Of a stretch of 64,000 nucleotides of DNA, positions 24,970 through 39,980 are shown one piece after another (position 1 is the stretch's first letter; each line of letters opens with the position of its first letter). The notes beneath the pieces are model-generated. The model was given only the letters and a program-made list of their open reading frames with translations, made no database searches and was not told the origin of the DNA. Source of the DNA: Candidatus Latescibacterota bacterium (GTDB taxonomy: Bacteria; Latescibacterota; UBA2968; GCA-2709665). The DNA lies in assembly GCA_963667175.2 (NCBI GenBank), contig CAXXXF010000004.1, forward strand, positions 192,001 to 256,000, read 5' to 3'. A program made the position numbers and the translations under genes.

Positions 24970-25704
24970 TCAATACTGCCAGTCCGCATGCGCCAGTGGC
25001 GATCGATTGAGTTCGTCCCGATGATAGCGCCAAGTTGGCATGAACCTGTCCATCAGCGACCGAAAACGATCGTTGTGACGACGCTCAATCAAGTGAACCA
25101 TTTCATGGAGAACGACAAAGTCTAGGCAGGATGACGGTTTCTTTGCCAACTCGAGATTCAGCCAGATTCGGCGGGCATCCGGGTTGCAGGTACCCCATCG
25201 AGTCTTCATCTTTCTGATACGAGCTTCATTGACGTGCACACCCAATTCAGGCTCCCACTTCGCGATGAGACCCGGTAGACGATCTCGGAGTTGCTGGCGG
25301 TACCATCGATCCATCACGGCTTCTCTGGTATTCCGGTCGGCCCTCGGTCGTACGCACATTCCCATTGTCGTGTTATTGATGAGACAAACCGAAGGTTGTC
25401 CGTCACATTCCGTAACATCGAGTCGGTAGCGCCTTCCCTCGAAGTAATGGCTTTCACCAGTGACGAATTCCCGTTGGGACTGCCGATTTTGCTTCTCGAA
25501 TTTCGACTGATGGCGACGAATCCATCCCAGCCGAGAAACAACAGCCATCCGCACCGCGTCATCATCAAGACTGAGCGGAGCGGCCACTCTAACCCTGCCG
25601 TTCGGTGGGTAGACCCCAATATGGAGGTTCTTGATGTCCTTGTGGACCACATCGACCGCAGTCCCTTGTACATCAATGCTGTAAGTTTTCCACTCAGTAT
25701 TCAC
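24970..25704 (-). CDS. M48/YgjP (DUF45)-family zinc metallopeptidase, copy 1
   Basis: VLHEMVH HExxH motif; overlaps the hsdR stop, the usual position for this family. Confidence 0.9.
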   Translation of the reverse strand: MNTEWKTYSIDVQGTAVDVVHKDIKNLHIGVYPPNGRVRVAAPLSLDDDAVRMAVVSRLGWIRRHQSKFEKQNRQSQREFVTGESHYFEGRRYRLDVTECDGQPSVCLINNTTMGMCVRPRADRNTREAVMDRWYRQQLRDRLPGLIAKWEPELGVHVNEARIRKMKTRWGTCNPDARRIWLNLELAKKPSSCLDFVVLHEMVHLIERRHNDRFRSLMDRFMPTWRYHRDELNRSPLAHADWQY

Positions 25705-28700
25705 TCTGCGCCTTTACAATCTCAAATATTCGGTACACCAGGCCCTCATTGTCGCCGAGTTGCGACCTTATAGCGTTGCGGACCTCCCGTTCCTTGAATT
25801 TGTTTCCACGCCAGTCCGCTTTCTTGACGCTACGAATGGCGTGATCAACCGCGACAGCCTTTGCGGAAAGTTCATCCGCGGAAAACTCCATCCCGGTGTC
25901 GGCATAGGGTTTGTCTTGCCCAAGTGCGGCACCCTGTAAGTTATCGAATAGAGACCTGAGCGTGTTGGTGTCGATTTCCGACGGATATGACGTCTCGGAT
26001 TCAGGGCTGCTGACTTTTTTGGCCAAGTCAATAATTCTCGCAAGGTACATCTTGTAGTCGAGGCTTTCCTGCTTACGCTGAAGGATCAGGGCGTCCAACA
26101 ACTCAGACATCTTGCCGTAATATTTAGGGTTGACCGGGGTCTCGTCGATGATGAGACGGCGGACGTTATTCTCTATCGTCTCGGCCGTCGCCTCCTGATC
26201 ACTGCGAATACCATCTGGAAGTGCATCTAACGCCTTATCGCCTCGTTTGACGATTAGCTGTACAAGTGTCAGATCGTCAAACGTCGAGAGTCTTTCACTT
26301 TCCTCGGCGCGGATGTAGGTGTCGAGAAGGTGCCGCATGGCCGGCTCATACATCTTCAGGTCAATGTAGTCGCCACTCGCGAGTTTGACCTCCTTGCGGA
26401 CATTCTCGTAGTGATCCACTTCTATTTTTATTTCCTGCGCCTCGGCATCACTGTAACCTGCCTCATGCATTTCGTTGGCCAGGTTGGCGTAAGCTCGCAA
26501 AAGCGCCGCAGTCCGCCTATAGAGGGCTAGACGCCGTGGCTCAGTTTCCTTGAGACCCTTGATACTTCCACCATCCGTCCCGCAGAAGAAACGCCGATAT
26601 GACGCAGAGTCGCGTGGCAGCGCGACCGGCTCACACAGCGCCCGTATAGCCTCGCGTGTCTCCTCAAGCCGCTCACGCCCCTTCGCGAGCCTGTCCGTCA
26701 GCAACCCCTGCACATCGGCATGGTCGTACCCGCCGAAGGCACCTCCGGTGTAATCCTGAATCGACTGCTCCAACGAACGGAACAGGTCCTTGTAGTCGAC
26801 GATATATCCGTACACTTTGTCCTCACCGTCGAGGCGGTTGACACGGCAGATCGCCTGGAAGAGCCCATGGTCCTGCATGTGTTTGTCGATGTAGAGATAG
26901 GTAGCAGAGGGTGCATCGAAACCGGTCAGGAGCTTATCTACCACGATAAGGAGCTTCATCTGCCCCGGCTCCTTTACGAATCGCTTCTTAACCTCGCGTT
27001 CAAACCGCTCAACCTTGTTCATTGCGGTGTCTTCCGGCTCGTTGAAGTGCACCGCAAGCATCTGTCGGTAGATACCGTACCGGCGTAGCCTCTCGGTAAG
27101 CCCTTCGCCGGTCTCCTCACCCTTGATGTCCCCGGGCGCTGGCTTGTAGGATGTGACGATGGCGCACTTACCCGCCAAATCAGTCTGCTGAAACATCTCA
27201 AAAAAGCGGCACGCAGAGTCGATGCTGCCAGAGACCAGCAGGGCGTTGCCCTTACCGCTCTTAAGTCGGTCGCATATCTCCATGTCTAGCTGAATGTCGG
27301 CGACGATTTTCTCCAAGCGATCCCGTGAACTTAACACTCTCCGCATGGTGCCCCAACGCTGTTTAAGTTGGGCCTTCGCTACGTCAGTCAATCCTTTGGT
27401 CTTGACTTCGAACCACTGATCTATCTTGTCCTGAGAGGTAATATTCTGGTCGATGTCACGTGCTTCGTAACGCAAGTCCAGCACCACGCCATCGCGCACC
27501 GCTTCGTCGTACTTATAGGTGTGGATGTAGGTTCCGAAGGTCTCGATGCTGCGGCGCTTATCTGCCTTGAGCAATGGGGTTCCGGTAAAGCCAATGAGCA
27601 TAGCGCCTGGTAAAATTGCCCTCATTGCCTCGTGAAGTTTTCCGGACTGGGTGCGGTGACATTCGTCCACGAAAACGAAAATCTCGCCCTTGGGACGGAA
27701 ATCACCGGGTAGATTCTTCTTGATCTCCTCGACGTAGGCCTCGATTTCTCTTTCGCTGATATCGTCGGTTGTACCGAACTTGTGGATAAGGGAGCCGATC
27801 AGCCACTCGTCGGGTCTGTTAAGTACCTGCACGAGATCAGCTCCACTTTTCGTCCGGTAGATGTCCTCGCTGACACCCTTGAAAACAGCCTCAATTTGCT
27901 CGTCCAACTCCGTGCGATCCGTTATGAGAAGGACCCTTGCGTCGGTGACGTTCTCGCGAATCCATTTCGCAAGCCAGACCATCGTCAGGCTCTTGCCACT
28001 CCCTTGCGTGTGCCAGATGATGCCACCCTCCCGGCTTTTCACTCGGACTTGGGCAGCCCGCGCACCGAAGTATTGGTTGTGGCGGCAAGTCTTCTTTACC
28101 CCAGCGTCAAAGACGACGAAGTCATGTATTATCTCAAGTAATCGCTCTTTGCTGCAGAGTTGACTCAGCTCGCGCAATAAAGGATTGTCGCCGGCAGCCG
28201 GGTTGGCGTTCGCTTCCTTCCAGTGCAGCCAGTATTTTTCAGGTGTCTCGATTACACCGTAACGCAACCCCTCGGTATCATTGCCCGCCATCACGAGTTG
28301 CACGGTGGTGAAAAAGGGGCGGATGAACTCCTTTTTCTGGTTGTCAAGGTTTTGACGAATGCCCTCGGTCACAGAAACCGTCGAGCGCTTCAGTTCCAGG
28401 ATCCCGAGAGCGATCCCATTGACGTATAGCACAATGTCCGGACGTTTGCTGTTCGTCGCTGAGATTGTAACCTCTTCGGCGATTGCAAAGTCGTTATTGC
28501 CAGGATTCTCCCAGTCCATCAGCCAGACAGTGACATTCGGTTCGCCGACGTCCGGTCGGACCTTCACTCCGTAACGGAGCAGGCTGTATACCTCGCGGTT
28601 TGCTTCGTATAGTGTCTTGCTGCCGCCGAGTGCTGATGCTTTGTCCAGTTCGCGCAGAACCTTGTTTACGACATTGTCGGCGTAACCATTGCGCTTCAGC

Positions 28701-28843
28701 CAATCGGTGAGCAGCCTTTTCTCAACATTACCGTTATCGGCGCGATCCTGCCAGTGGCCGAGATTGGAGTACCCTAGCGAATCCCGCAAGAAAGAAATCA
28801 CCCGTCGCTGTGTGCGAAATTCGTTTTGACCGATTGTGTTCAT
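25694..28843 (-). CDS. hsdR: Type I restriction enzyme R subunit
   Basis: RPDIVLYVNGIALGILELK nuclease motif, WHTQGSGKS Walker A, VDECHR, GFTGTP, LLTGFDAP, QAICRVNR. Confidence 0.96.
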   Translation of the reverse strand: MNTIGQNEFRTQRRVISFLRDSLGYSNLGHWQDRADNGNVEKRLLTDWLKRNGYADNVVNKVLRELDKASALGGSKTLYEANREVYSLLRYGVKVRPDVGEPNVTVWLMDWENPGNNDFAIAEEVTISATNSKRPDIVLYVNGIALGILELKRSTVSVTEGIRQNLDNQKKEFIRPFFTTVQLVMAGNDTEGLRYGVIETPEKYWLHWKEANANPAAGDNPLLRELSQLCSKERLLEIIHDFVVFDAGVKKTCRHNQYFGARAAQVRVKSREGGIIWHTQGSGKSLTMVWLAKWIRENVTDARVLLITDRTELDEQIEAVFKGVSEDIYRTKSGADLVQVLNRPDEWLIGSLIHKFGTTDDISEREIEAYVEEIKKNLPGDFRPKGEIFVFVDECHRTQSGKLHEAMRAILPGAMLIGFTGTPLLKADKRRSIETFGTYIHTYKYDEAVRDGVVLDLRYEARDIDQNITSQDKIDQWFEVKTKGLTDVAKAQLKQRWGTMRRVLSSRDRLEKIVADIQLDMEICDRLKSGKGNALLVSGSIDSACRFFEMFQQTDLAGKCAIVTSYKPAPGDIKGEETGEGLTERLRRYGIYRQMLAVHFNEPEDTAMNKVERFEREVKKRFVKEPGQMKLLIVVDKLLTGFDAPSATYLYIDKHMQDHGLFQAICRVNRLDGEDKVYGYIVDYKDLFRSLEQSIQDYTGGAFGGYDHADVQGLLTDRLAKGRERLEETREAIRALCEPVALPRDSASYRRFFCGTDGGSIKGLKETEPRRLALYRRTAALLRAYANLANEMHEAGYSDAEAQEIKIEVDHYENVRKEVKLASGDYIDLKMYEPAMRHLLDTYIRAEESERLSTFDDLTLVQLIVKRGDKALDALPDGIRSDQEATAETIENNVRRLIIDETPVNPKYYGKMSELLDALILQRKQESLDYKMYLARIIDLAKKVSSPESETSYPSEIDTNTLRSLFDNLQGAALGQDKPYADTGMEFSADELSAKAVAVDHAIRSVKKADWRGNKFKEREVRNAIRSQLGDNEGLVYRIFEIVKAQSEY

Positions 28844-28918
28844 GTACGTTCGCAATTTAGTAACTCGGGCCAGTTCACAACTCGGAGAAAGACATTGGCC
28901 GCATTCGATGAGTTGGCC

Positions 28919-29419
28919 TCAATCGTCCATCAGGTCTGGACATACAAACACCACGTGAATCCCATTTTTTTGAAGTGTTGCGCGGTGGTGCCACCAATCT
29001 GTATCAGATGCGTTTAACAACTCCGGACTAGAATGGCTAGCCAACGCTACAGCCACGAACTTTCGATCATCCCAATCGAAAGTATCGAGATCTGGGTCAT
29101 TGGGAAACTCCTCGAAGCCACGGTCTCGGTGAGGCTTTACTGTGATTTTCCGGCAATGCTGGTCGTTAGCTTGGTTTTTCCAAAGCCACAGGAAGAAATA
29201 GTCCCCGAGACCAGGCTCCCCTGAAGGGTTGAGGTTTCTTCGGTATTCGTCAATAATCAGATTCTCGTCGTCAAGAAGAAGCCGAAACCCTCCGTTCTGG
29301 ATCATACTTAATGTTTCTCTACACTTAAATATGCAACTCCGATTGAAGTCTTGGTAATTATGATTTGCAACTACGGCGACATTGGTATCCATGATTATCT
29401 CAGGTTTCTTCGAATTCAC
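28919..29419 (-). CDS. PIN-domain ribonuclease-like protein
   Basis: IIMDTNV, IIDEY, DWDDRKFVAVA, ASDTDW acidic PIN tetrad. Confidence 0.75.
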   Translation of the reverse strand: MNSKKPEIIMDTNVAVVANHNYQDFNRSCIFKCRETLSMIQNGGFRLLLDDENLIIDEYRRNLNPSGEPGLGDYFFLWLWKNQANDQHCRKITVKPHRDRGFEEFPNDPDLDTFDWDDRKFVAVALASHSSPELLNASDTDWWHHRATLQKNGIHVVFVCPDLMDD

Positions 29420-29430
29420 TCGAGATACCC

Positions 29431-30777
29431 CTACCTATTCTGTAAGGCCTCGCTCATGGCGGCAATTTCACCGAACTGATCCCCAAAGAACCCTTTAGGC
29501 CAATTGGAAATATTCCCGAATTTGTCAAGCTCGAGCTGGCTAATGTTTGAGGCACCCTGGTCGTTCATTGAACAGAAATAAAGGCTAACGTCATCCTTGT
29601 TGATCTTTCCTTCTGCGATTCGACGTTGAAGTCTAAGCAATAGATGTTCGCTATGGCTTTCGAACAAGACCTGTACATTCCGCTGCTGCCAAGCGTCAAT
29701 AAATACATCAGCAAGGCCCGCTTGTACAGAAGGATGCAAGTGAATCTCTGGCTGCTCCAATATGATCTTGGACTTACGTGGAACATAGAAACAAAGCACC
29801 AATACGGGAAGTATCTGGGAAACTCCGAAGCCGATGTCAGTGAGGAGAACCTCAGCTGAATTGGGTGACTTACGGACCCTTACTTCGAATAAGCGTCTCC
29901 CTTTAGTCAATGCCACTACGCGAAAATCGTATATCAATCCGAGACGCATAAGCCATTGCGCGATATATCTTTCGAAACTTAGAGGTCGTCGTCGATGGCT
30001 AATCCTTCTTCCACGTTCGCGAGACGATAGGATTGCGTCTACCGCAAATTCGCCTGCCTGGCCCATATCGCGAGGTTGTGCACCAGATCGTGCGTAGATC
30101 CGAGACGGATAGGCACGCAGAGGTCCGAGATAAAAGAGACTCCTTAAGGACAATTCCAATGCGTATTGAAGGCTGTACATTATGGCCGGGTCTTTGAAGA
30201 ACTCAGGAAGCCAATATCTAAACTCGTGAAATTTAACCGAACGAACTAGCCTATCGTCATCCCTCACACGGTGAGACCTATCCCTTCCGGCACCACGTAC
30301 AAACAGATCGTGTTCCTTCTTTCCCGGTACTCGCACCAAACCAAACCGTCTTCCGCGGACAGTATATGCCATTTTTTTTACTAGTGGCGACTTCCCAGAA
30401 CCGACATTCTCCTCTGTGACATCGACATCAAATCCAATTTCGTCACCTGGCGTTGGAGGTTGGGTGTTAATCGTATCGTCAAATGGCAGCTCAATCTCTG
30501 AGTTCCAGCCGAGCGAAAGTCTAATACTTTGCTTTGTGTCATGCTGGTGGACCACGCTTTCAAAGTCACCTAGGTTCACAGGGGATTTTTCATCGCCGAA
30601 GTGAAATACAATTCCCGGGTCTGAAGAGTCGACCGTTTGTTTCATTAACAGCAAAGCTTGAAAAAGGCTGGTCTTGCCAGAACTATTGGTACCAAAAAAA
30701 CCTGTGATAGGCTTAAACGTAATGTCCCCTGTATCTTTCCAGGATTTAAAATTCTCCAAACGTAGCCGTGTCAACAT
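29431..30777 (-). CDS. ABC-type AAA ATPase (AAA_21/DUF3696-like)
   Basis: LENFKSW, Walker A GTNSSGKT, signature GFGVSQILP, Walker B LEQPEIHLHP, ESHSEH, C-terminal WPKGFF; RBS GAGGAGG. Confidence 0.88.
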   Translation of the reverse strand: MLTRLRLENFKSWKDTGDITFKPITGFFGTNSSGKTSLFQALLLMKQTVDSSDPGIVFHFGDEKSPVNLGDFESVVHQHDTKQSIRLSLGWNSEIELPFDDTINTQPPTPGDEIGFDVDVTEENVGSGKSPLVKKMAYTVRGRRFGLVRVPGKKEHDLFVRGAGRDRSHRVRDDDRLVRSVKFHEFRYWLPEFFKDPAIMYSLQYALELSLRSLFYLGPLRAYPSRIYARSGAQPRDMGQAGEFAVDAILSSRERGRRISHRRRPLSFERYIAQWLMRLGLIYDFRVVALTKGRRLFEVRVRKSPNSAEVLLTDIGFGVSQILPVLVLCFYVPRKSKIILEQPEIHLHPSVQAGLADVFIDAWQQRNVQVLFESHSEHLLLRLQRRIAEGKINKDDVSLYFCSMNDQGASNISQLELDKFGNISNWPKGFFGDQFGEIAAMSEALQNR

Positions 30778-30995
30778 TTGGGGCACCTCCTCAGCGAGTA
30801 CCTAACTGTAAGACGTCAATTTAGCAATCCCAGGAGGCTCGGATCATTTCGTTCGTCAAAATTCATCTTATCTCCGTTTACGTCCGGCTTACTTCGAGAA
30901 TCGTCGACCAGAAAAGTCAAATCTCAGTTCCTTTTGCGGCCAAATTCCTGAAAAAACTGCCGAGATATTTCAATTCAACGTTAATTCCTGCGTTT

Positions 30996-31499
30996 CTAAC
31001 GATTCTCGGATTCCCTCTCAATGATACTTGCAAGCTGATCTTGTCTCCAGGGTACGACATTAATATTGTTGTCGATTATTGCCTTAGGAAGTCGTCGTGG
31101 AGGAGTGTTTCCTTTGTGCATAGCGACGACGGCTTTCCCAATTTCAATGCTCTCTCTTATCTCCCAGTCGACCCATTTGCTACTTACGGTATTTTCAGAC
31201 ACATAGACAACAGTTACAGAAGATTGGCGAATGCGTTCCCTAATACCGCGCCTAATATAGTCGGCTACCTCACTGTCGAACGGTTTTCTCAGTGACCAAT
31301 CATTGAAATTTATGTTGCTGTCTTGGTTCCTCGCCTGAGCACGCAGCAAATTAACCTCATTGAGATCATCCGATGAAAAGCTAATAAACACATTGCGTTT
31401 GTGCTCGTCGACACGATCCTTAAGGGACCGTCTGACACGCTGCTCGAGTGACTCCAGTTCGTTTGGGTCTAATCCTCTACCACTGCCTATGCCGCCCAT
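30996..31499 (-). CDS. TIR-domain protein (DUF1863/Thoeris ThsB-like) with Gly-rich N-terminus
   Basis: RNVFISFS, IRERIRQSSVTVVYVS, SKWVDWEI with the catalytic Glu; starts MGGIGSGRG; RBS AGGAG. Confidence 0.88.
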   Translation of the reverse strand: MGGIGSGRGLDPNELESLEQRVRRSLKDRVDEHKRNVFISFSSDDLNEVNLLRAQARNQDSNINFNDWSLRKPFDSEVADYIRRGIRERIRQSSVTVVYVSENTVSSKWVDWEIRESIEIGKAVVAMHKGNTPPRRLPKAIIDNNINVVPWRQDQLASIIERESENR

Positions 31500-31501
31500 T
31501 T

Positions 31502-32098
31502 CTATCTCCTTTTTTCAGCATTATCGATCTCAATACAAGCGATACAAACCCCGCAAGGATCTTTACCACCAGCGTGACACGAATAGGTTTGTGTGATCCC
31601 TCGTTTGCTGGCCAAAAGCAAGACATCTCGCTTTGACAATTCCAGTAAAGGCGCAAGGACAAGAATGCGGCTCCCCATCGCAATCTCGATCATCCTTTCA
31701 CATTCATCCAAGAAGTGTTTCGTCTGGTCTGGGAAGATGTGATCAGCGGGATTGAGTAGACCGAGCGCGATGCTATTTGCCTGAACATCAATTGCATGAG
31801 CCGCACCTGCCAAGACAAATAGGAGATTGCGGCCCGGCAAAAAAGCATCCTCATTTATGCGCAAATTACAGTTTGTGAGACCACTCGAGATCGTCTTTCC
31901 AAACCCAGACACGTCCATGTACGTAGCAGGTGGTAGACCAAATTGTGAGTGAAGGCGCTCGCAGGCCTCCCATTCCTCGCGTACGGCAAGTTGGCCATAG
32001 TCAATAAAGAGTGGAAATAGCTCTGCTCCTTCCTCCTTCGCTATCACGCTCACAAGAGTTGAATCAAATCCACCCGATACAAGAGTCACGATCCGCAA
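31502..32098 (-). CDS. queC: QueC-family PP-loop ATPase (Cap9-like)
   Basis: SGGFDS PP-loop, IDYGQ, PGRNLLF, YSCH...PCGVCIAC zinc site. Confidence 0.9.
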   Translation of the reverse strand: MRIVTLVSGGFDSTLVSVIAKEEGAELFPLFIDYGQLAVREEWEACERLHSQFGLPPATYMDVSGFGKTISSGLTNCNLRINEDAFLPGRNLLFVLAGAAHAIDVQANSIALGLLNPADHIFPDQTKHFLDECERMIEIAMGSRILVLAPLLELSKRDVLLLASKRGITQTYSCHAGGKDPCGVCIACIEIDNAEKRR

Positions 32099-32777
32099 TT
32101 TTGGATTCCTCCTTTGCCACTCTTATTACAATCCAGACTGCAAGGTCGAATTGGTCAGGCGAGTATCCGAACGCACAGGCATGTTCGATAAAGGCGCTTT
32201 CCAACGCTTCGTATTCGCACAGATTCGAAATCGATTTGAACGATGAGCCTGTAATTCCTACCCAACGCAAATAAGTCAGAACATGCACATCCAAGATCGC
32301 AATGTACTTTGCAAAACAAATGTTGCGGAGAAATAGACTTGCCTGTTTCGGTCCCAGACCTGGAACCTCTCGCACTAGCAGTCTTCGAGCGCTGCAAACG
32401 TCTTCTGAATCATCTAACAGGCTGAGTATTGACCCTCGTGTAATGTATATGTATTCTGCTGCCCGCCGAATCTGATTGGCACGGACGCGAAAAAAGGGAT
32501 AACCTCCCGTTAGTGCTGCTAAAGTGTCCACTTCAAATTGATTAAAACAAGTGCGTGGCTGCGGTCGCGACAACAGACACATACTGCTCATGCGTTCGAT
32601 GGCTGCATTAACAGCCTTGACTCTTACCCGACTACCCAGGATACATGACACAAGCTCCCTCCACAGTTCATCTTCGCTATGGATTCTCCAGGACACGGGC
32701 GGGCGTTCTTCTAATGTGTTGCACACATCGCGGATCGCTTGTTCGATAGATAGTAGCGTGAAATTTTTCGTCGCCAT
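32064..32777 (-). CDS. 8-oxoguanine DNA glycosylase/AP-lyase-like HhH protein (Cap11-like)
   Basis: LWRELVSCILGS, HhH VPGLGPKQASLFLRN with catalytic Lys, AILDVHV, DLAVW. ATG 32777 directly follows the upstream stop. Confidence 0.82.
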   Translation of the reverse strand: MATKNFTLLSIEQAIRDVCNTLEERPPVSWRIHSEDELWRELVSCILGSRVRVKAVNAAIERMSSMCLLSRPQPRTCFNQFEVDTLAALTGGYPFFRVRANQIRRAAEYIYITRGSILSLLDDSEDVCSARRLLVREVPGLGPKQASLFLRNICFAKYIAILDVHVLTYLRWVGITGSSFKSISNLCEYEALESAFIEHACAFGYSPDQFDLAVWIVIRVAKEESKIADRDSCIGWI

Positions 32778-32778
32778 G

Positions 32779-33843
32779 CTATTGAACTCCTTCGATAGCA
32801 GGCAATAGCAGATCCAATTGTTCCTTAGTTGCATACTTTTGGACGAACGATTCAACTCTTCCGGTATACAGTGCTTCCTGAAACCCTACCATAAACTCGC
32901 GATAAAAAACCAGATTGTGCATTAAGACAGATTGGACGTACGGTAGTACGGGAGATTGACCCCACTCTGTTTGGTTTCGGATCAGATCCCATTGCTGGAA
33001 ATGTAACAGCCTGCCATTCTCGTGATCAACGACTGCCTGACACCATTCCAATCCATCAAAACTATCGGCTCCCGCCAATGTGTAGGCAATGATTGAAATC
33101 GGATTTCCGGTTCCAAGCAGGTGAAGCGGGCAATAGAAGCCTAATGCGTTTAACGCTACTCGGATTCTCCGTACGGTGCGAATCCGATCGAGAATTCCCT
33201 CACCTAAATCTCGTTCCGCGACAGCCAACAATAAAGGGTAGAGCTTTTCCGCTGTTAAACGCGCCGCATCAGGCAATTCTTCTGCGTTGCCATGGACTAT
33301 CGGAAGCACTGTTGTCTGTGCATTCTCCTGATCTCTTGTTACACCGGCCACGACATCGTCGGCGATCGATTTCGGAGAGTCAGGTGGCTTCAGGTTATCA
33401 AAACAGAAGCAGAGATCGTGTTGATAGGATTGCACGACCTTATGAAAATCAGCCGGTCCCCAATCGGAATCTTGTTTCCAATAGCTTTCGTAGTTTCCGC
33501 TATCAATAAGTACAACGGCACCGCTTTCTATACGTCTATTAAGGGCAGTTTCCATGCGAGGGCGCTGATCATCAGGACAATTGGCTAAATCATATGCAGA
33601 AGCTAAAAACAGTGGATGACCAGTAACGGTCAGAAAGTCAGCGTAACTGACCGGCGATAGGCTTGTCTTCACGCTCGAAACTGAAGGAAAGAAACAGGGT
33701 ACTTGAACGGTTGTCTCAGCGACGTATAACTCCTGGCTTCGTTCGATTGCCGTAGAGGATTCGACGTTTAGGTATTTGGCTCCATTGCAATGTTGGATTG
33801 TCATCTTAATCATCCTTGATTGCTTGAATCTGAAGAACGCCAC
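32779..33843 (-). CDS. tRNA-guanine transglycosylase-fold protein (Cap10-like)
   Basis: PCFFPSVS, LIDSGNYE, LPIVHG, PLHLLGTG, GADSFDG, HNL motifs. The true start may be 33813 or 33804. Confidence 0.82.
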   Translation of the reverse strand: MAFFRFKQSRMIKMTIQHCNGAKYLNVESSTAIERSQELYVAETTVQVPCFFPSVSSVKTSLSPVSYADFLTVTGHPLFLASAYDLANCPDDQRPRMETALNRRIESGAVVLIDSGNYESYWKQDSDWGPADFHKVVQSYQHDLCFCFDNLKPPDSPKSIADDVVAGVTRDQENAQTTVLPIVHGNAEELPDAARLTAEKLYPLLLAVAERDLGEGILDRIRTVRRIRVALNALGFYCPLHLLGTGNPISIIAYTLAGADSFDGLEWCQAVVDHENGRLLHFQQWDLIRNQTEWGQSPVLPYVQSVLMHNLVFYREFMVGFQEALYTGRVESFVQKYATKEQLDLLLPAIEGVQ

Positions 33844-33892
33844 GTAAGACTTCTGTCCATCGAAGAGTAAGTTTCGGAACAGAATACTGACT

Positions 33893-34852
33893 TTACGCCA
33901 TTTCTTCGCCCGCGTGGGTCGGACCGAAATTTACATTTCGGCGTACACACCACATAGTGTGCTCACGAGAAATGGTCTGCTCGACCTGCTCCACGAGCTC
34001 GAGAAAAACAGCCTCTTCCATTGCATCCAACGCGATTGTTTCCTGATCCCCAAGTTCCTGGGCGGCGAGCGAATAGGACTGAGCCAACTCATTGTAGCGC
34101 TTCATTTGACTCCAGGCGACAGCGGAAGCAGCGCAAGTCATTAACAACGGGACCACGTTTAATGGTAAGCCACTCGAACACGCCTGAATAATTGCAAGAG
34201 CAATGGCGGAAATCTGTAGAACAACAACTGTCCAGTACCAACGGATTTCCTTTCTTGAATTGAAGATGGCTTTATTTGAATACCAGGTCTTTTGATCGCG
34301 AAGCCGCGACTCAAGATATAGGTTCCGCCGTTCACCCACGGATTTCCGACGAATTTCATTCATAAGACCACTAACGGATTGAGCATTTGGATCGAGATTT
34401 TGCGCCAAATCCGTCGGGCTGGACGGTCTCGCTCCTCTTATTTGCTGAAGTTTCTCAAGAAATGATTGCTCAGATGTGCTGTCATCCTTGAATGGTTCAG
34501 CCTTCATCATGAATCGCCATGTGGCGGTCTTTGTTGACTCAGCAATCGCCCGACAGTCAAACCAAACTTCCTCATCCCGACGGACGCGGGATGTCAGAGT
34601 AAGAAAAATGCCAATTGTCAGAACGATCGCTAAAAGAACGTAGGTCCATGTGGCGACGATTGGAAATATTGTCGTCATGGCGACACTAACGCTCCCCAAG
34701 ATAAGACAGAATAAATGCCATCGATGAAAGTGAATATAGCGCCGCTGTGCCGAGATTGAGGATCGATCGGCACTCTGGTATAGTCCCGGAAAGTGTTCGT
34801 CTTCAACAATCGTTGGCGCTGATTCCTGCTGGTTATTCCCGTCATTGACCAT
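33893..34852 (-). CDS. SLATT/DUF4231 4-TM membrane effector
   Basis: Two TM hairpins, WFDCRAIAESTKTATWRFMM, RLRDQKTWY, ISREHTMW motifs of tandem SLATT domains. Confidence 0.82.
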   Translation of the reverse strand: MVNDGNNQQESAPTIVEDEHFPGLYQSADRSSISAQRRYIHFHRWHLFCLILGSVSVAMTTIFPIVATWTYVLLAIVLTIGIFLTLTSRVRRDEEVWFDCRAIAESTKTATWRFMMKAEPFKDDSTSEQSFLEKLQQIRGARPSSPTDLAQNLDPNAQSVSGLMNEIRRKSVGERRNLYLESRLRDQKTWYSNKAIFNSRKEIRWYWTVVVLQISAIALAIIQACSSGLPLNVVPLLMTCAASAVAWSQMKRYNELAQSYSLAAQELGDQETIALDAMEEAVFLELVEQVEQTISREHTMWCVRRNVNFGPTHAGEEMA

Positions 34853-34961
34853 CAAAATGCCTCCGAAAATCTGTGTTTTATCATCACACGTCTGTTCTTG
34901 AAGAAAATCGGTTTCGTGTGTCTAACGTTGCCCTGTCGTGCCGTCTAAAACTCAGTCCGAT

Positions 34962-35051
34962 CAGCCTCATCCGCCCAGTAATAAGGTGCAGTATCACTCC
35001 CTGTTTGACAGAACGGATCCTGCCCCGGCACAACTCCACCAAGGCGATCTC
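34962..35051 (-). pseudogene. Degenerate 3' end of an hsdS gene
   Basis: Translates EIALVELCRGRIRSVKQGVILHLITGRMRL, against EIAALERRRKKVRAVKHGMMEQLLSGRVRL at the C-terminus of the intact HsdS. Confidence 0.75.
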
Positions 35052-35074
35052 AACAAGCTTAATGAAATCGTGGA

Positions 35075-35851
35075 CTATCCCGAGATGCTCTCGCTTAGAA
35101 AGCGCGTAATCCTCTCCTGATTTGCAGTGAGGCTGGAGAATTGCTTCTCGCAGACGTCGCTGAAGCGCGCCAACACCTTGCGATTAATCGACTCTTGGTC
35201 TTCGAAAATGGCGAGTGAACCGAACGGTATTTCCCACCGTTCAAATTGAAGGAGCGCGATCGTTGCGTCGCGGGTCCTGCCATCGCTCGCGAGCGCATGA
35301 ACGAATAACGGCCGCTGCATACCGTTGACTCGACAGTCCACGGTATACATTCCTTGAGGATCCCGTTCAGGATCGTTCCAGTCAAAACTCCGACGATTTT
35401 CCGGGACGGCGCCAGTCATCACCGTACGAAAATCGTCCATAAATGTGGAACTGACCCTTGCCCGAGATAAGTACGAAACGTCGGATATCTTGAGTAGCCC
35501 CTGAACGAACGAATACAGTGCGTCACCGTAACGTTCCTCCGGCACGTCAAGTATCAACTCTCCGTCACGATCCTCGATCTGAAACATGGAAAGTGTATTT
35601 GAAATGATTTTTTGACGCGTGCCACCATGGAGATCCTTCTCATCGATGTCGTATGTCAGATGCATGTACGTATGCGCTTCATCGGAAAGCACCCAACGTG
35701 TACCGTCCTTCCTTAAAACGATGTCCAGATGATCGCCGTCGTCGAACATGAACGGGGTAAACACGCGGAAGCGTTCCATACCCTCGGCCGCAAGCCGAAT
35801 CTGAGCCGAGACCTTCTCGTGAAAGTCTCGCTCTATGGTCTCAAAGGACAT
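35075..35851 (-). CDS. DUF1828-like protein
   Basis: VFTPFMFDDGDHLDIVL...WVLSDEAHT N-terminal motif; C-terminal restriction-endonuclease-like region. Confidence 0.7.
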   Translation of the reverse strand: MSFETIERDFHEKVSAQIRLAAEGMERFRVFTPFMFDDGDHLDIVLRKDGTRWVLSDEAHTYMHLTYDIDEKDLHGGTRQKIISNTLSMFQIEDRDGELILDVPEERYGDALYSFVQGLLKISDVSYLSRARVSSTFMDDFRTVMTGAVPENRRSFDWNDPERDPQGMYTVDCRVNGMQRPLFVHALASDGRTRDATIALLQFERWEIPFGSLAIFEDQESINRKVLARFSDVCEKQFSSLTANQERITRFLSESISG

Positions 35852-35854
35852 TGC

Positions 35855-36337
35855 TTACACCTCCTCGAAAAGGTCAACTTGGAGGTCCGGCGGTAACACA
35901 AGATTCACATCGGAAATCAGACAACGAAGGGCACCGTGATAGTCTCCGAAACGGTCGGTTGGATCGGCGTACGCATCCTCCCTGGTTCCGAGTTCCTGAT
36001 ACCTCTCCGTGGCAACATGAATGTGAAAATCATAGAATTTCACGCCTTCAATGCGGTTCGAATGTTCTTGGCTCTTGCCATTATAGCGCCGGAGGCGGAA
36101 GAGTTGATTTGATCCCGGAACTCGAACAGCCAGAATAACTGAGAAGTCGAGCGGATTGATCTTATTCTGCCTGAGAATCAGACGATACTCGCTCCCCGCA
36201 TCACCTGCTAAATCAAGGTGTTGTTCTTCGTGGCCACGCTTGGACTTTAGACGAATCCGGGTGCGCCAATCTGGAGGCAGGAGCTTGCGCTCTTGTATCA
36301 ACGACTCTATCTCATGATCCGAAAACGTTACCGCCAT
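35855..36337 (-). CDS. DUF6978-like hypothetical protein
   Basis: LRRYNGKSQEHSNRIE...FHIHVATERY His motifs; coupled to the DUF1828-like gene. Confidence 0.6.
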   Translation of the reverse strand: MAVTFSDHEIESLIQERKLLPPDWRTRIRLKSKRGHEEQHLDLAGDAGSEYRLILRQNKINPLDFSVILAVRVPGSNQLFRLRRYNGKSQEHSNRIEGVKFYDFHIHVATERYQELGTREDAYADPTDRFGDYHGALRCLISDVNLVLPPDLQVDLFEEV

Positions 36338-36374
36338 AACGATTACAATTCGATGGCCCACACCTGGCCGAAGA

Positions 36375-38078: not shown

Positions 38079-38610
38079 CCGGCTCTCCTATATGTAGAAA
38101 GATATTCAAAGCGAGTCCAACCGTTTGGACTTCTCTTTCAGGTCTTCGCAAATCAACTCTGCTGATCAGAAGACTAGACACCCCACGCTTGTCTTTTACA
38201 GCGTAGAAGCGATAGCCAAACAACAGACGCATGACGGGATTAAAATGAAAGGCGCCGGCTTGCGCAATTGCTACTACGATGATTAGTAAAATATAGATGC
38301 TCGTTAGCGACTCGCTGGCAAACGTCGAATTTTCGGATCGGACAAAGGGCAACAAATAAATAAACAGGAATGTAAGAACCTCCTGATCCTTGCTTTCAAA
38401 TTCCTTAATGTAGAATGAGTGTTTTTGTGCTTTCTTCGCAGCGTTTCTCAAGAGCGCCCAACAAAGAGCAACCAAAACTATCGCAGCCAAGAACCACCAT
38501 ATCCAACTCGTCCATGGCTCGCAACGCTCGAATTGACTGATGGCCACGGCGCCGAGGACTGGAGATAAAGATGTTGATACCAACAGACACTTGGCAAGGA
38601 AGCTCAGCAT
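38071..38610 (-). CDS. kwaA: Kiwa KwaA-like membrane protein
   Basis: Four hydrophobic segments, FLFIYLLPF and FNPVMRLLFGYRFY motifs; paired with kwaB. Confidence 0.72.
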   Translation of the reverse strand: MLSFLAKCLLVSTSLSPVLGAVAISQFERCEPWTSWIWWFLAAIVLVALCWALLRNAAKKAQKHSFYIKEFESKDQEVLTFLFIYLLPFVRSENSTFASESLTSIYILLIIVVAIAQAGAFHFNPVMRLLFGYRFYAVKDKRGVSSLLISRVDLRRPEREVQTVGLALNIFLHIGEPDA

Positions 38611-39980
38611 GCTGGATTTTCCTTAGTAGGTGTTGGCAGATCCAGCCGTACCCGCCCGGATAAAAGTTGCTCCATCATCCCGTGCTTGACGGCACGAACT
38701 TTTTTTCTCCGTCGCTCCAACGCTGCGATCTCAGCATCCATATCGGAAAGGACAGTTGCGATGGCTCTTTGTTCGGTGTAGTTGGGAACAGAAAGTTCCA
38801 TAGACGCCATATCTCGGTTGCCTATTTCCAGAAATGTTGATCCAATTGCGCGCTCCAACATCCGAGACTTGAGCGTCAAGAGCACGTAATACAGAAACTC
38901 ACTCGAAACATCTGCTTTGCAGACGAGCGACTTAAACCCTTGGTTTGTGCATACTGGCGATATACTGATCTTAATCTCTCCGATGGTTGCGCGGCTGCAG
39001 AGCAGTAGGGAACCAGCAGGAAGCAGCCTCGCCCCGCAACTTGCCAATCCTTCCTCAGTGACACTCCGATGCGTCGCAACGAGGTACTTCTCACGCGTGG
39101 CCGTGATATCGGTGGGCGTACACCACGGAATCGGCCCGTTCCAATAGGCACCAATTTGAGTACTTGGCGTTGCTCCGCCGATAATGTCTGCGACTCTTCC
39201 GACCGTTGTCGTCTCCCACTCCCCGCAGAATCCCGGCAACCGAGTCTTGCCGGTAAGGAGTTGTTGCATCGCCGCTTGCTTGATGGCTCGTTTTTTGGCA
39301 ATCAGCGCTTCCAGCGTCGTAAGCAACCCATCCACATCCGACAACGCCTCGGCGATGGCGCGTTGTTCGGCCACAGGGGGGAGAAATGCACGGACGTTCC
39401 TGATTGACTGCTTTGATATTCCAAAGACCTTTAGACCAGTGGCGAGGCGACGCAATTGTTCCTTTGCCGGCCCATTCTCTAGAAGAAATCCGCGATAGCC
39501 ATATTGGACTCGCATGTCCTTTGATCTGAGCAGGAATGTATGCAATCCTGAAACTGCTTCAGCCGTACCAAGGTTTCGAATTTCGACGCTCTTACCTACA
39601 CCAATTTCGTCTTCGGAGGCATCTGCGACGACTAGATCGCCATCTCTAAGCCGGGTGGCTTTAACACTCTTGCCGCGCAAAAGATATGGTACATCTTCTC
39701 GGGAAAAGTCGATAACATGATCAAATCGGGTATGGATGTCGCCGTAATGTATATACGCCGTTTGCCCGGACTCTCCTAGATCGGCTCTAGAATTGGATGC
39801 AGTACTTTGGAAGTCGAAAAGTTCGCCAATGGAGAATACGGACCAATCATCGGGAATCACTCCCCATTCGGTTCGAGTGTAACCCTCGGGTGGATCATTC
39901 GATGGGGCAAATCCGGGTTCACTTTCTCTGCCCGAATGATCGGATATACTGTTCATCAAATTAACCCTTCGTGCGACCAC
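38604..39980 (-). CDS. hsdS: Type I R-M specificity subunit
   Basis: IPDDW, two TRDs, conserved repeats LPPVAEQRAIAEALSD...KQAAMQQLLTGKTRL and EQRAIATVLSDMD...QLLSGRVRL. Likely start 39956. Confidence 0.95.
   Translation of the reverse strand: MVARRVNLMNSISDHSGRESEPGFAPSNDPPEGYTRTEWGVIPDDWSVFSIGELFDFQSTASNSRADLGESGQTAYIHYGDIHTRFDHVIDFSREDVPYLLRGKSVKATRLRDGDLVVADASEDEIGVGKSVEIRNLGTAEAVSGLHTFLLRSKDMRVQYGYRGFLLENGPAKEQLRRLATGLKVFGISKQSIRNVRAFLPPVAEQRAIAEALSDVDGLLTTLEALIAKKRAIKQAAMQQLLTGKTRLPGFCGEWETTTVGRVADIIGGATPSTQIGAYWNGPIPWCTPTDITATREKYLVATHRSVTEEGLASCGARLLPAGSLLLCSRATIGEIKISISPVCTNQGFKSLVCKADVSSEFLYYVLLTLKSRMLERAIGSTFLEIGNRDMASMELSVPNYTEQRAIATVLSDMDAEIAALERRRKKVRAVKHGMMEQLLSGRVRLDLPTPTKENPAC

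Follow-up and report, generated by a model that had tools for sequence, protein, structure and literature searches.

What does a TIR protein with a glycine-rich head do directly behind the gene for a QueC-like enzyme? The question is raised by a minus-strand operon in a 64,000-nucleotide (nt) stretch of DNA from Candidatus Latescibacterota bacterium (contig CAXXXF010000004.1, positions 192,001 to 256,000; hereafter the window, to whose numbering the coordinates below refer). Five same-strand genes, encoding a SLATT effector, a TGT-like, an OGG-like and a QueC-like protein and, last, the TIR protein, abut with gaps of 1-2 nt or overlap. The answer we consider likely is that the TIR protein loses its initiator methionine, that the QueC-like enzyme joins 7-carboxy-7-deazaguanine (CDG) to the exposed Gly2, and that the TGT-like protein holds the modified tail, which would gate a Thoeris-like abortive response running from the TIR protein to the SLATT protein. 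The TIR N-terminus is favored as the acceptor because its tag is conserved and co-occurs with QueC, because a similar Gly head is found in the cyclic-oligonucleotide-based antiphage signaling system (CBASS), because the catalytic residues of the accessory enzymes are kept, and because the genome is positive for the CDG pathway.

The TIR gene is the minus-strand open reading frame (ORF) 30996..31499, which encodes a ThsB-type TIR protein of 167 amino acids (aa; Pfam ThsB_TIR at residues 38-129, 5.9e-24; PADLOC ThsB, 4e-16; PDB 8fz9_A, 1.1e-13). Its ATG (31499..31497) is the earliest start codon past the upstream in-frame stop and is separated by 2 nt (31501..31500) from the TAG stop (31504..31502) of the QueC-like ORF. 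The first 20 codons (31440..31499) encode MGGIGSGRGLDPNELESLEQ, and the product begins with the Gly-rich head MGGIGSGRG (codons 1-9, 31473..31499, minus strand), in which Gly2 is the proposed acceptor after removal of Met. Since residue 36 aligns with residue 4 of the solved stand-alone TIR 8fz9_A, residues 1-35 are a true N-terminal extension. An AlphaFold2 model of the protein (42-row alignment, mean predicted local distance difference test score (pLDDT) of 74.7) has coil at residues 1-11, a helix at 12-27 (31419..31466, minus strand; assigned with DSSP) and, opening the core, a strand at 35-40. The helix is modeled at low confidence (pLDDT about 44-52), and its L18 is nearly invariant in the TIR-relative alignment. 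In a gene 2 nt after queC, the first-pass annotation of this DNA had described an extension rich in Gly and then a helix, both preceding the TIR core, and that description was borne out by the ORF read, the 8fz9_A alignment and the AlphaFold2 model alike. By analogy with helix alpha1 of CdnD, we propose that the helix may serve to dock the TIR protein on the QueC-like or TGT-like protein. In the core, W109, W112 and E113 are invariant, and E113, part of a W-x-x-x-E motif, would be the catalytic Glu known from the Thoeris literature.

The Gly-rich head is a property of the family rather than of this one gene. A search for TIR homologues gave 1032 at E<=1e-3 among 1076 candidates; among the 120 listed, which are 63-100% identical and supply the counts that follow, almost all are 161-172 aa long and Gly2 is present in 118 (MGG in 109, MGS in 8, and MVG, VGG and MRG in one each), the MRG start belonging to a protein with an annotated start upstream and the MGG run internal. 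A locus scan that took one genome per species and used patterns from the TIR core, not from the tag, yielded 73 loci, which were then searched with the five window proteins. Identity is 42-93% at 68 of these loci; 61 of the 68 are intact, and seven were set aside because they are cut by a contig end (L028, L064), are remnants (L031, L047), are frameshifted (L026, L067) or are without a QueC-like gene (L044). The TIR gene directly follows the QueC-like gene in all 61 intact relatives, with a gap of 1-2 nt in 42 of them. When the TIR start was assigned by a rule blind to the motif, as the start codon nearest the QueC stop, Gly2 was found in 59 of the 61 and Gly-Gly in 58, and the extension measured 30-39 aa in every one. 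The three that depart from Gly-Gly begin with MMGG (L002, where the second ATG gives MGG), MAG (L015) and MGN (L021), and the consensus of the linked family is MGGGGGG. While the rest of the extension differs between clades, Gly2-Gly3 and one Leu of the helix are retained. A TGT-like gene accompanies the pair at 59 of the 61 loci, both misses lying at contig ends, and an OGG-like gene at 57. The linked family is large and extends across many phyla, including archaea. Five distant TIR loci (L069-L073, 28-32% identity) have no QueC-like neighbor, and the TIR genes of three of them (L071-L073) begin right at the core.

A control was drawn from Pfam ThsB_TIR matches in 401 genomes of one class, which occurred in 34 genomes and of which 30 loci were listed. 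All five QueC-linked TIRs in this set start with MGGG and have extensions of 33-43 aa, whereas none of the 25 unlinked TIRs starts with MGG and 23 of them start within 10 codons of the core. The Fisher probability of the contrast in MGG starts is about 7e-6, a value that is weakened as support by the fact that the linked TIRs are one related family and are therefore not independent events; on these sequences, the link between MGG and QueC is a maintained co-occurrence rather than five independent associations. MGG is thus enriched in queC-linked relative to unlinked TIRs, a comparison that the first-pass annotation had put forward.

A few relatives show the module in other states. At L031:6488-7330, a decayed copy, the QueC-like gene lacks its first 20 codons and is fused to TIR residue 54, and TGT-like, OGG-like and SLATT genes are absent; another decayed copy, L047:7001-7363, holds TIR residues 47-166 only. 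The sole family member without a QueC-like gene on its contig is L044:425-898, which lies on a 3.4-kb contig with 424 nt upstream and has a degenerate tag, MGSEDAGG, in which Met-Gly-Ser is followed by acidic residues; this could be a tag that is decaying after loss of its helper, or merely the consequence of a truncated contig. The region G001:C14:18940-23565, from the genome that also holds L052 and L100, has three ThsB_TIR matches within 5 kb, the first of them QueC-linked, and appears as a multi-TIR island.

The same kind of head is found on the cyclases of type IV CBASS. The PADLOC CBASS QueC model at E<=1e-18 matched in nine of the 401 genomes; five of these have TIR-linked proteins, one (L083) has a protein linked to a cGAS/DncV-like nucleotidyltransferase (CD-NTase), and three have proteins that group with ordinary QueC. 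In this one-class sample, QueC-like modules are accordingly linked to TIRs in five genomes and to a CD-NTase in one, which are small numbers. L083 holds a type IV CBASS operon of the classical kind, with genes for Cap9, Cap10, the CD-NTase, a two-transmembrane (2TM) protein and an OGG-like protein. Among 120 listed homologues of its CD-NTase, 94 begin with MGG, 16 with MAG and 3 with MSG, followed by a run of Gly and Ser, and these N-termini agree with the motif M(G/S)G(G/S)GG published for the type IV CBASS synthase (bioRxiv 10.1101/2025.04.06.647259). A profile of the first 42 residues of 115 of the CD-NTase homologues was searched against the 7740 ORFs of the 73 loci and matched 24 ORFs at E<=1; TIR ORFs, matched at their N-termini, made up 22 of these (best E of 3e-4).

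The TGT-like protein also points toward CBASS. It is encoded at 32779..33843 (minus strand; 354 aa from a GTG, start uncertain; Pfam TGT, 2.2e-11; PADLOC CBASS TGT, 2.2e-22), and its D114/S115, D149, H241 and D263 correspond to D73/S74, D122, H226 and D248 of Cap10 in alignments with 9ntn_A, although in one of the Cap10 alignments the D122 column was displaced by 3; these residues are invariant in 32 family members. The first profile of the family held one CBASS Cap10 sequence, possibly inflating its match to 9ntn_A (8.1e-34), and when the search was repeated without any CBASS sequence the profile still matched Cap10 9ntn_A at 1.4e-19 (73.6 bits), as against 3.6e-6 (29.4 bits) for archaeosine TGT.

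The QueC-like protein (31502..32098, minus strand; 198 aa from a TTG start; Pfam QueC, 1e-34; PADLOC CBASS QueC, 6.1e-28) has a PP-loop, S8-G-G-F-D12-S13, together with R90, F122, D124 and a four-Cys site (C174, C182, C185 and C188). In an alignment with Cap9 9nto_B, S8/D12/S13 correspond to S18/D22/S23, R90 to R86, F122 to Y115 and D124 to D117, and the PP-loop, the NDG-contact equivalents and the four-Cys site are invariant or nearly invariant across 42 members of the family. A search of the PDB with the single sequence placed Cap9 9nto_B (5.5e-13) beside QueC 2pg3_A (7.6e-13). The conserved residues permit the Cap9 reaction without proving it.

Substrate should be available to such an enzyme, to judge from the gene content of the host. 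Elsewhere in the genome are two canonical genes for QueC, one for QueD, a QueE-like gene that scores below the subfamily cut-offs, and a canonical TGT gene; the QueC-like and TGT-like copies in the window are therefore extra. Modeling of the complex, which the first-pass annotation had suggested, was carried out for the pair formed by the QueC-like and TIR proteins (both entered as alignments) and gave a weak pass, with a score of 0.45 against 0.02 for the best of three controls, contacts at least 89% shared between runs, and a partner pLDDT of at least 73. Of the reference pairs, 58 of 80 solved complexes attain the mark used in this test, as do 2 of 110 mismatched pairs, and scores at or below 0.60 account for 7 of the 80 and for both mismatches.

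How might these proteins work together? Translation would start at the ATG at 31499, and methionine aminopeptidase, which removes Met1 when residue 2 is Gly, would then take off the first residue. The QueC-like enzyme would adenylate CDG supplied by the queuosine pathway of the host, and the free amine of Gly2 would take the place of ammonia, giving an N-terminal 7-amido-7-deazaguanine adduct; for this to happen, the flexible Gly head would enter the active site while the helix that follows it docks on the QueC-like enzyme. The TGT-like protein would bind the base-tagged tail, and the TIR protein may be held there in a primed or inactive state or transferred to some target. The OGG-like protein may undo the step made by the TGT-like protein or a later transfer. 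Upon infection, the TIR protein would make a signal derived from nicotinamide adenine dinucleotide (NAD), and the SLATT membrane effector would open. Which chemical steps take place, what signal is made and what the OGG-like protein does are inferred. The earlier proposal that the TIR N-terminus is the acceptor of the QueC-like enzyme agreed with every sequence-level test that was run, with the modification chemistry as its prediction.

The OGG-like (Cap11-like) protein is an HhH-GPD glycosylase, 237 aa long if its start is the ATG at 32777 (32064..32777, minus strand; Pfam Ogg-HhH, 3.2e-22); this ATG lies 1 nt past the stop of the TGT-like gene, and the OGG-like gene overlaps the start of the QueC-like gene by 35 nt. 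The first gene of the operon encodes the SLATT membrane effector (33893..34855, minus strand; 320 aa; Pfam SLATT_3, 1.9e-31, and SLATT_1, 1.3e-30), and a SLATT gene flanks 32 of the 61 linked loci. Ten downstream genes were scanned at other loci, where they encode TPR-S proteins (three), a lipase or alpha/beta-hydrolase with TPR-S (two), TIR-TPR proteins (two), a DUF3644 protein (one) or proteins matching no family (two). Such a variety of effectors, combined with one cassette in which a TIR gene stands beside TGT-like, OGG-like and QueC-like genes, fits a signal-and-effector design. Pfam and PADLOC found no CD-NTase or SMODS domain in the nine ORFs scanned within 28919..36361, and the TIR gene occupies the position that such a gene would have. 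At L025, L032, L036, L048, L051, L057 and L062, the cassette is followed by effectors of the TPR-S/MAP3K_TRAF_bd, lipase-like-TPR-S or long TIR-TPR kind.

Besides the shared ancestry of the linked TIRs, a number of observations weigh against conjugation of the TIR protein in the manner of type IV CBASS. The base-reading K154 of Cap10 is not conserved in the TGT-like family; its position aligns with L180, a hydrophobic residue in the consensus, just before an invariant P181. Four residues after the K154 position, and three after P181, stands H184, which is invariant in 32 of 32 members. The conserved residues of the QueC-like protein are also present in ordinary QueC and are thus not discriminating, and the family profile scores higher against QueC (2pg3_A, 99.1 bits; 3bl5_A, 86.3 bits) than against Cap9 9nto_B (76.1 bits). 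In a tree, the TIR-linked QueC-like proteins form a clade of their own beside the canonical-QueC clade, and the lone CBASS Cap9 in that tree sits on a very long branch that leaves its position unplaced. Given these profile scores and the unplaced Cap9 branch, orthology of the TIR-linked clade with Cap9 does not follow. The score of the modeled complex, moreover, falls in the weak band of the tool itself.

The tag itself adds further points of this kind. The window tag, MGGIGSG, departs from M(G/S)G(G/S)GG at position 4 (I) and position 6 (S) while keeping G2, G3 and G5; it matches the CD-NTase profile less well than the family average, and L001, the nearest relative of the window TIR, reached only E=3.2 with that profile. 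When the Gly head was stripped and the CD-NTase helix was used alone as a profile, no TIR was found among the ORFs of the 73 loci (best TIR ORF at E 0.67), and the idea that the helix of the TIRs is homologous to that of the CD-NTases was dropped for this reason. The demonstrable likeness in sequence between the two protein families extends to a head rich in Gly and to its position ahead of a helix, but not to the helix sequence. The tag had been conceived as portable, and this notion holds for the head and fails for the helix.

One alternative is that the QueC-like, TGT-like and OGG-like proteins make free 7-deazaguanine or modify or scan DNA or tRNA, and that the Gly tail of the TIR protein is a non-covalent docking peptide or a linker. 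The closer affinity of the QueC-like profile to housekeeping QueC, the presence of all its conserved residues in true QueC, the membership of the OGG-like protein in a DNA glycosylase family, the loss of the Cap10 K154 and the weak complex test would all be accommodated by such an arrangement. The TGT-like family, however, is far nearer to the protein-binding Cap10 than to tRNA or archaeosine TGT by the bit scores given above, and canonical QueC and TGT of full length are encoded elsewhere in the genome. Furthermore, a linker would need neither Gly2 at 59 of 61 loci nor a junction of 1-2 nt with QueC, and an unrelated protein, the CD-NTase, has this head only in a system with demonstrated N-terminal conjugation. 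We therefore regard the free-base alternative as quite unlikely.

A second alternative keeps the conjugation of Gly2 and changes its details: the chemistry or the reader may be unlike that of type IV CBASS, involving another 7-deazaguanine derivative or an altered reading by the TGT-like protein, in a clade recruited separately from QueC. The separate and well-populated QueC-like clade, with its profile nearer to QueC than to Cap9, speaks for such a departure, as does the replacement of K154 by a hydrophobic residue with the invariant H184 nearby. The other pocket and catalytic residues of Cap10 are kept, however, the Gly head is like that of CBASS cyclases, and the tree on which the separate clade rests held only one CBASS Cap9. 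We think this version improbable. Should QueC nevertheless have been recruited separately to give the TIR-linked QueC-like proteins, protein N-terminal deazaguanylation with a Met-Gly-Gly head would have arisen or been adopted at least twice, the altered reader may bind a different adduct, and the TIR form may be the commoner one; taken as a whole, this broader picture seems to us rather unlikely.

Translation could instead start downstream, at an in-frame GTG (codon 37, 31391..31389) that borders the TIR core and lies about where unlinked ThsB TIRs start; the tag would then not be made. This is hardly credible: no Shine-Dalgarno sequence precedes the GTG, whereas the ATG has an AGGAG ribosome-binding site 6 nt ahead of it (31506..31510, minus strand, inside the 3' end of the QueC-like gene), and the stretch of 35 codons before the core is conserved at the protein level in relatives down to 42% identity, from bacteria and archaea.

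Lipidation of the N-terminal Gly, in the manner of eukaryotic myristoylation, was considered and set aside, since the tag co-occurs with QueC and no bacterial enzyme is known to carry out this eukaryote-type reaction. A search of TIR residues 1-40 against PDB sequences gave only a chance match to triosephosphate isomerase (E 0.84), and the CdnD chain was absent from the matches.

The precedent for conjugation of the TIR protein is type IV CBASS (CdnD, Cap9, Cap10, Cap11 and a 2TM effector), in which Cap9 acts on the N-terminus of its partner (Wassarman et al., bioRxiv 10.1101/2025.04.06.647259). The window operon has in common with it the triad of accessory genes, a membrane effector, a synthase whose Met-Gly-Gly head, rich in Gly and Ser, precedes a helix, the PP-loop of the QueC-like protein, and the equivalents of D73/S74, D122, H226 and D248 in the TGT-like protein. 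It differs in that the synthase is a TIR protein, predicted to make an NAD-derived signal, rather than a nucleotidyltransferase, and in that the TIR gene follows the QueC-like gene, whereas the cyclase gene follows Cap10 in L083. A further difference lies in the accessory proteins, with the K154 equivalent not kept and no demonstrable orthology between the QueC-like clade and Cap9.

Thoeris operons with cap9, cap10 and cap11 have already been reported, in a preprint of December 2025 (bioRxiv 10.64898/2025.12.03.692087). As its main text describes them, these operons hold, like the one in the window, genes for a ThsB-type TIR, an effector and QueC-like, TGT-like and OGG-like proteins, and the TIR is proposed to be handled like a type IV CD-NTase. 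The main text gives the matter two sentences and the AlphaFold 3 scores for a single ThsB from one Pseudomonadales operon (interface predicted template modeling scores of 0.79 with Cap10 and 0.62 with Cap9), "suggesting a similar mechanism"; it makes no mention of a Gly motif at the TIR N-terminus. The first-pass annotation is probably right in substance, and its claim of a new substrate class gives way to this preprint, whose main text already holds the interpretation as a prediction. A search of the full-text literature found no other primary paper that ties TIRs to Cap9 or Cap10, and a survey of the QueC family (PMC13082051) contains no occurrence of TIR, Thoeris or Cap10. Relative to the main text of the preprint, the statistics of tag and linkage, the unlinked control, the difference at K154 and the ambiguity between QueC and Cap9 are new.

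Two other defense systems bear comparison with the window operon. Type VII Thoeris, as presented in the main text of the same preprint, consists of two genes, for a TIR protein and the SLATT effector ThsH, and its signal is canonical cyclic ADP-ribose. The window operon likewise has a ThsB-type TIR gene beside that of a SLATT membrane protein, whereas type VII Thoeris is described there without QueC, TGT or OGG genes. In QatABCD, the MGTS head of QatB is essential and a G2D substitution abolishes defense (PMC13279940). QatABCD and the window operon both pair a QueC-family enzyme with a partner that has an unstructured Met-Gly N-terminal tail; the QatB head is MGTS, however, the Qat system as described there has no TGT-like reader, and no Pfam or PADLOC matches to QatA, QatB or QatD were found among the operon genes of the window. 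It had been stated earlier that both Cap9 and QatC attach a base to the Gly of a partner; for Cap9 this stands, while for QatC it is an extrapolation in the cited report, which does not reconstitute the reaction.

If the TIR protein is indeed tagged with a base, conjugation of a nucleobase to a protein would be a general device for priming synthases of two unrelated folds, reaching beyond the cGAS-like enzymes of CBASS. A 167-aa TIR protein with a 35-aa tag would then also be a handy second substrate for asking to what target the TGT-like enzyme makes its transfer. As a prediction, the idea was already published in December 2025, in the preprint cited above, and the window adds an example and some statistics to it rather than a new principle.

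The neighborhood of the operon holds other candidate defense genes. A scan of 30700..35200 for promoters and terminators gave sites no more numerous than in shuffled sequence. Directly downstream of the TIR gene lies a HEC-03 candidate system identified with PADLOC (28919..30786, minus strand), which comprises two genes, HEC-03A (166 aa, 6.7e-33) and HEC-03B (451 aa, an AAA_15/AAA_21 ATPase with DUF3696, 1.5e-129). Just upstream of the SLATT gene, at 35075..36361 (minus strand), are genes for a DUF1828 protein (PADLOC PDC-M24B, 2.2e-18) and for a small protein whose match to DUF6978 falls below threshold; the two are probably a separate candidate defense pair. Farther out, inspection by eye of the flanks at 24970..28855 and 38604..39980 (both minus strand) found three ORFs, one of 1053 aa that is helicase-like, one of 244 aa that has an HExxH motif and one of 458 aa that resembles the specificity subunit of type I restriction enzymes. 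Their arrangement suggests that defense genes were inserted into a type I restriction system and split it.

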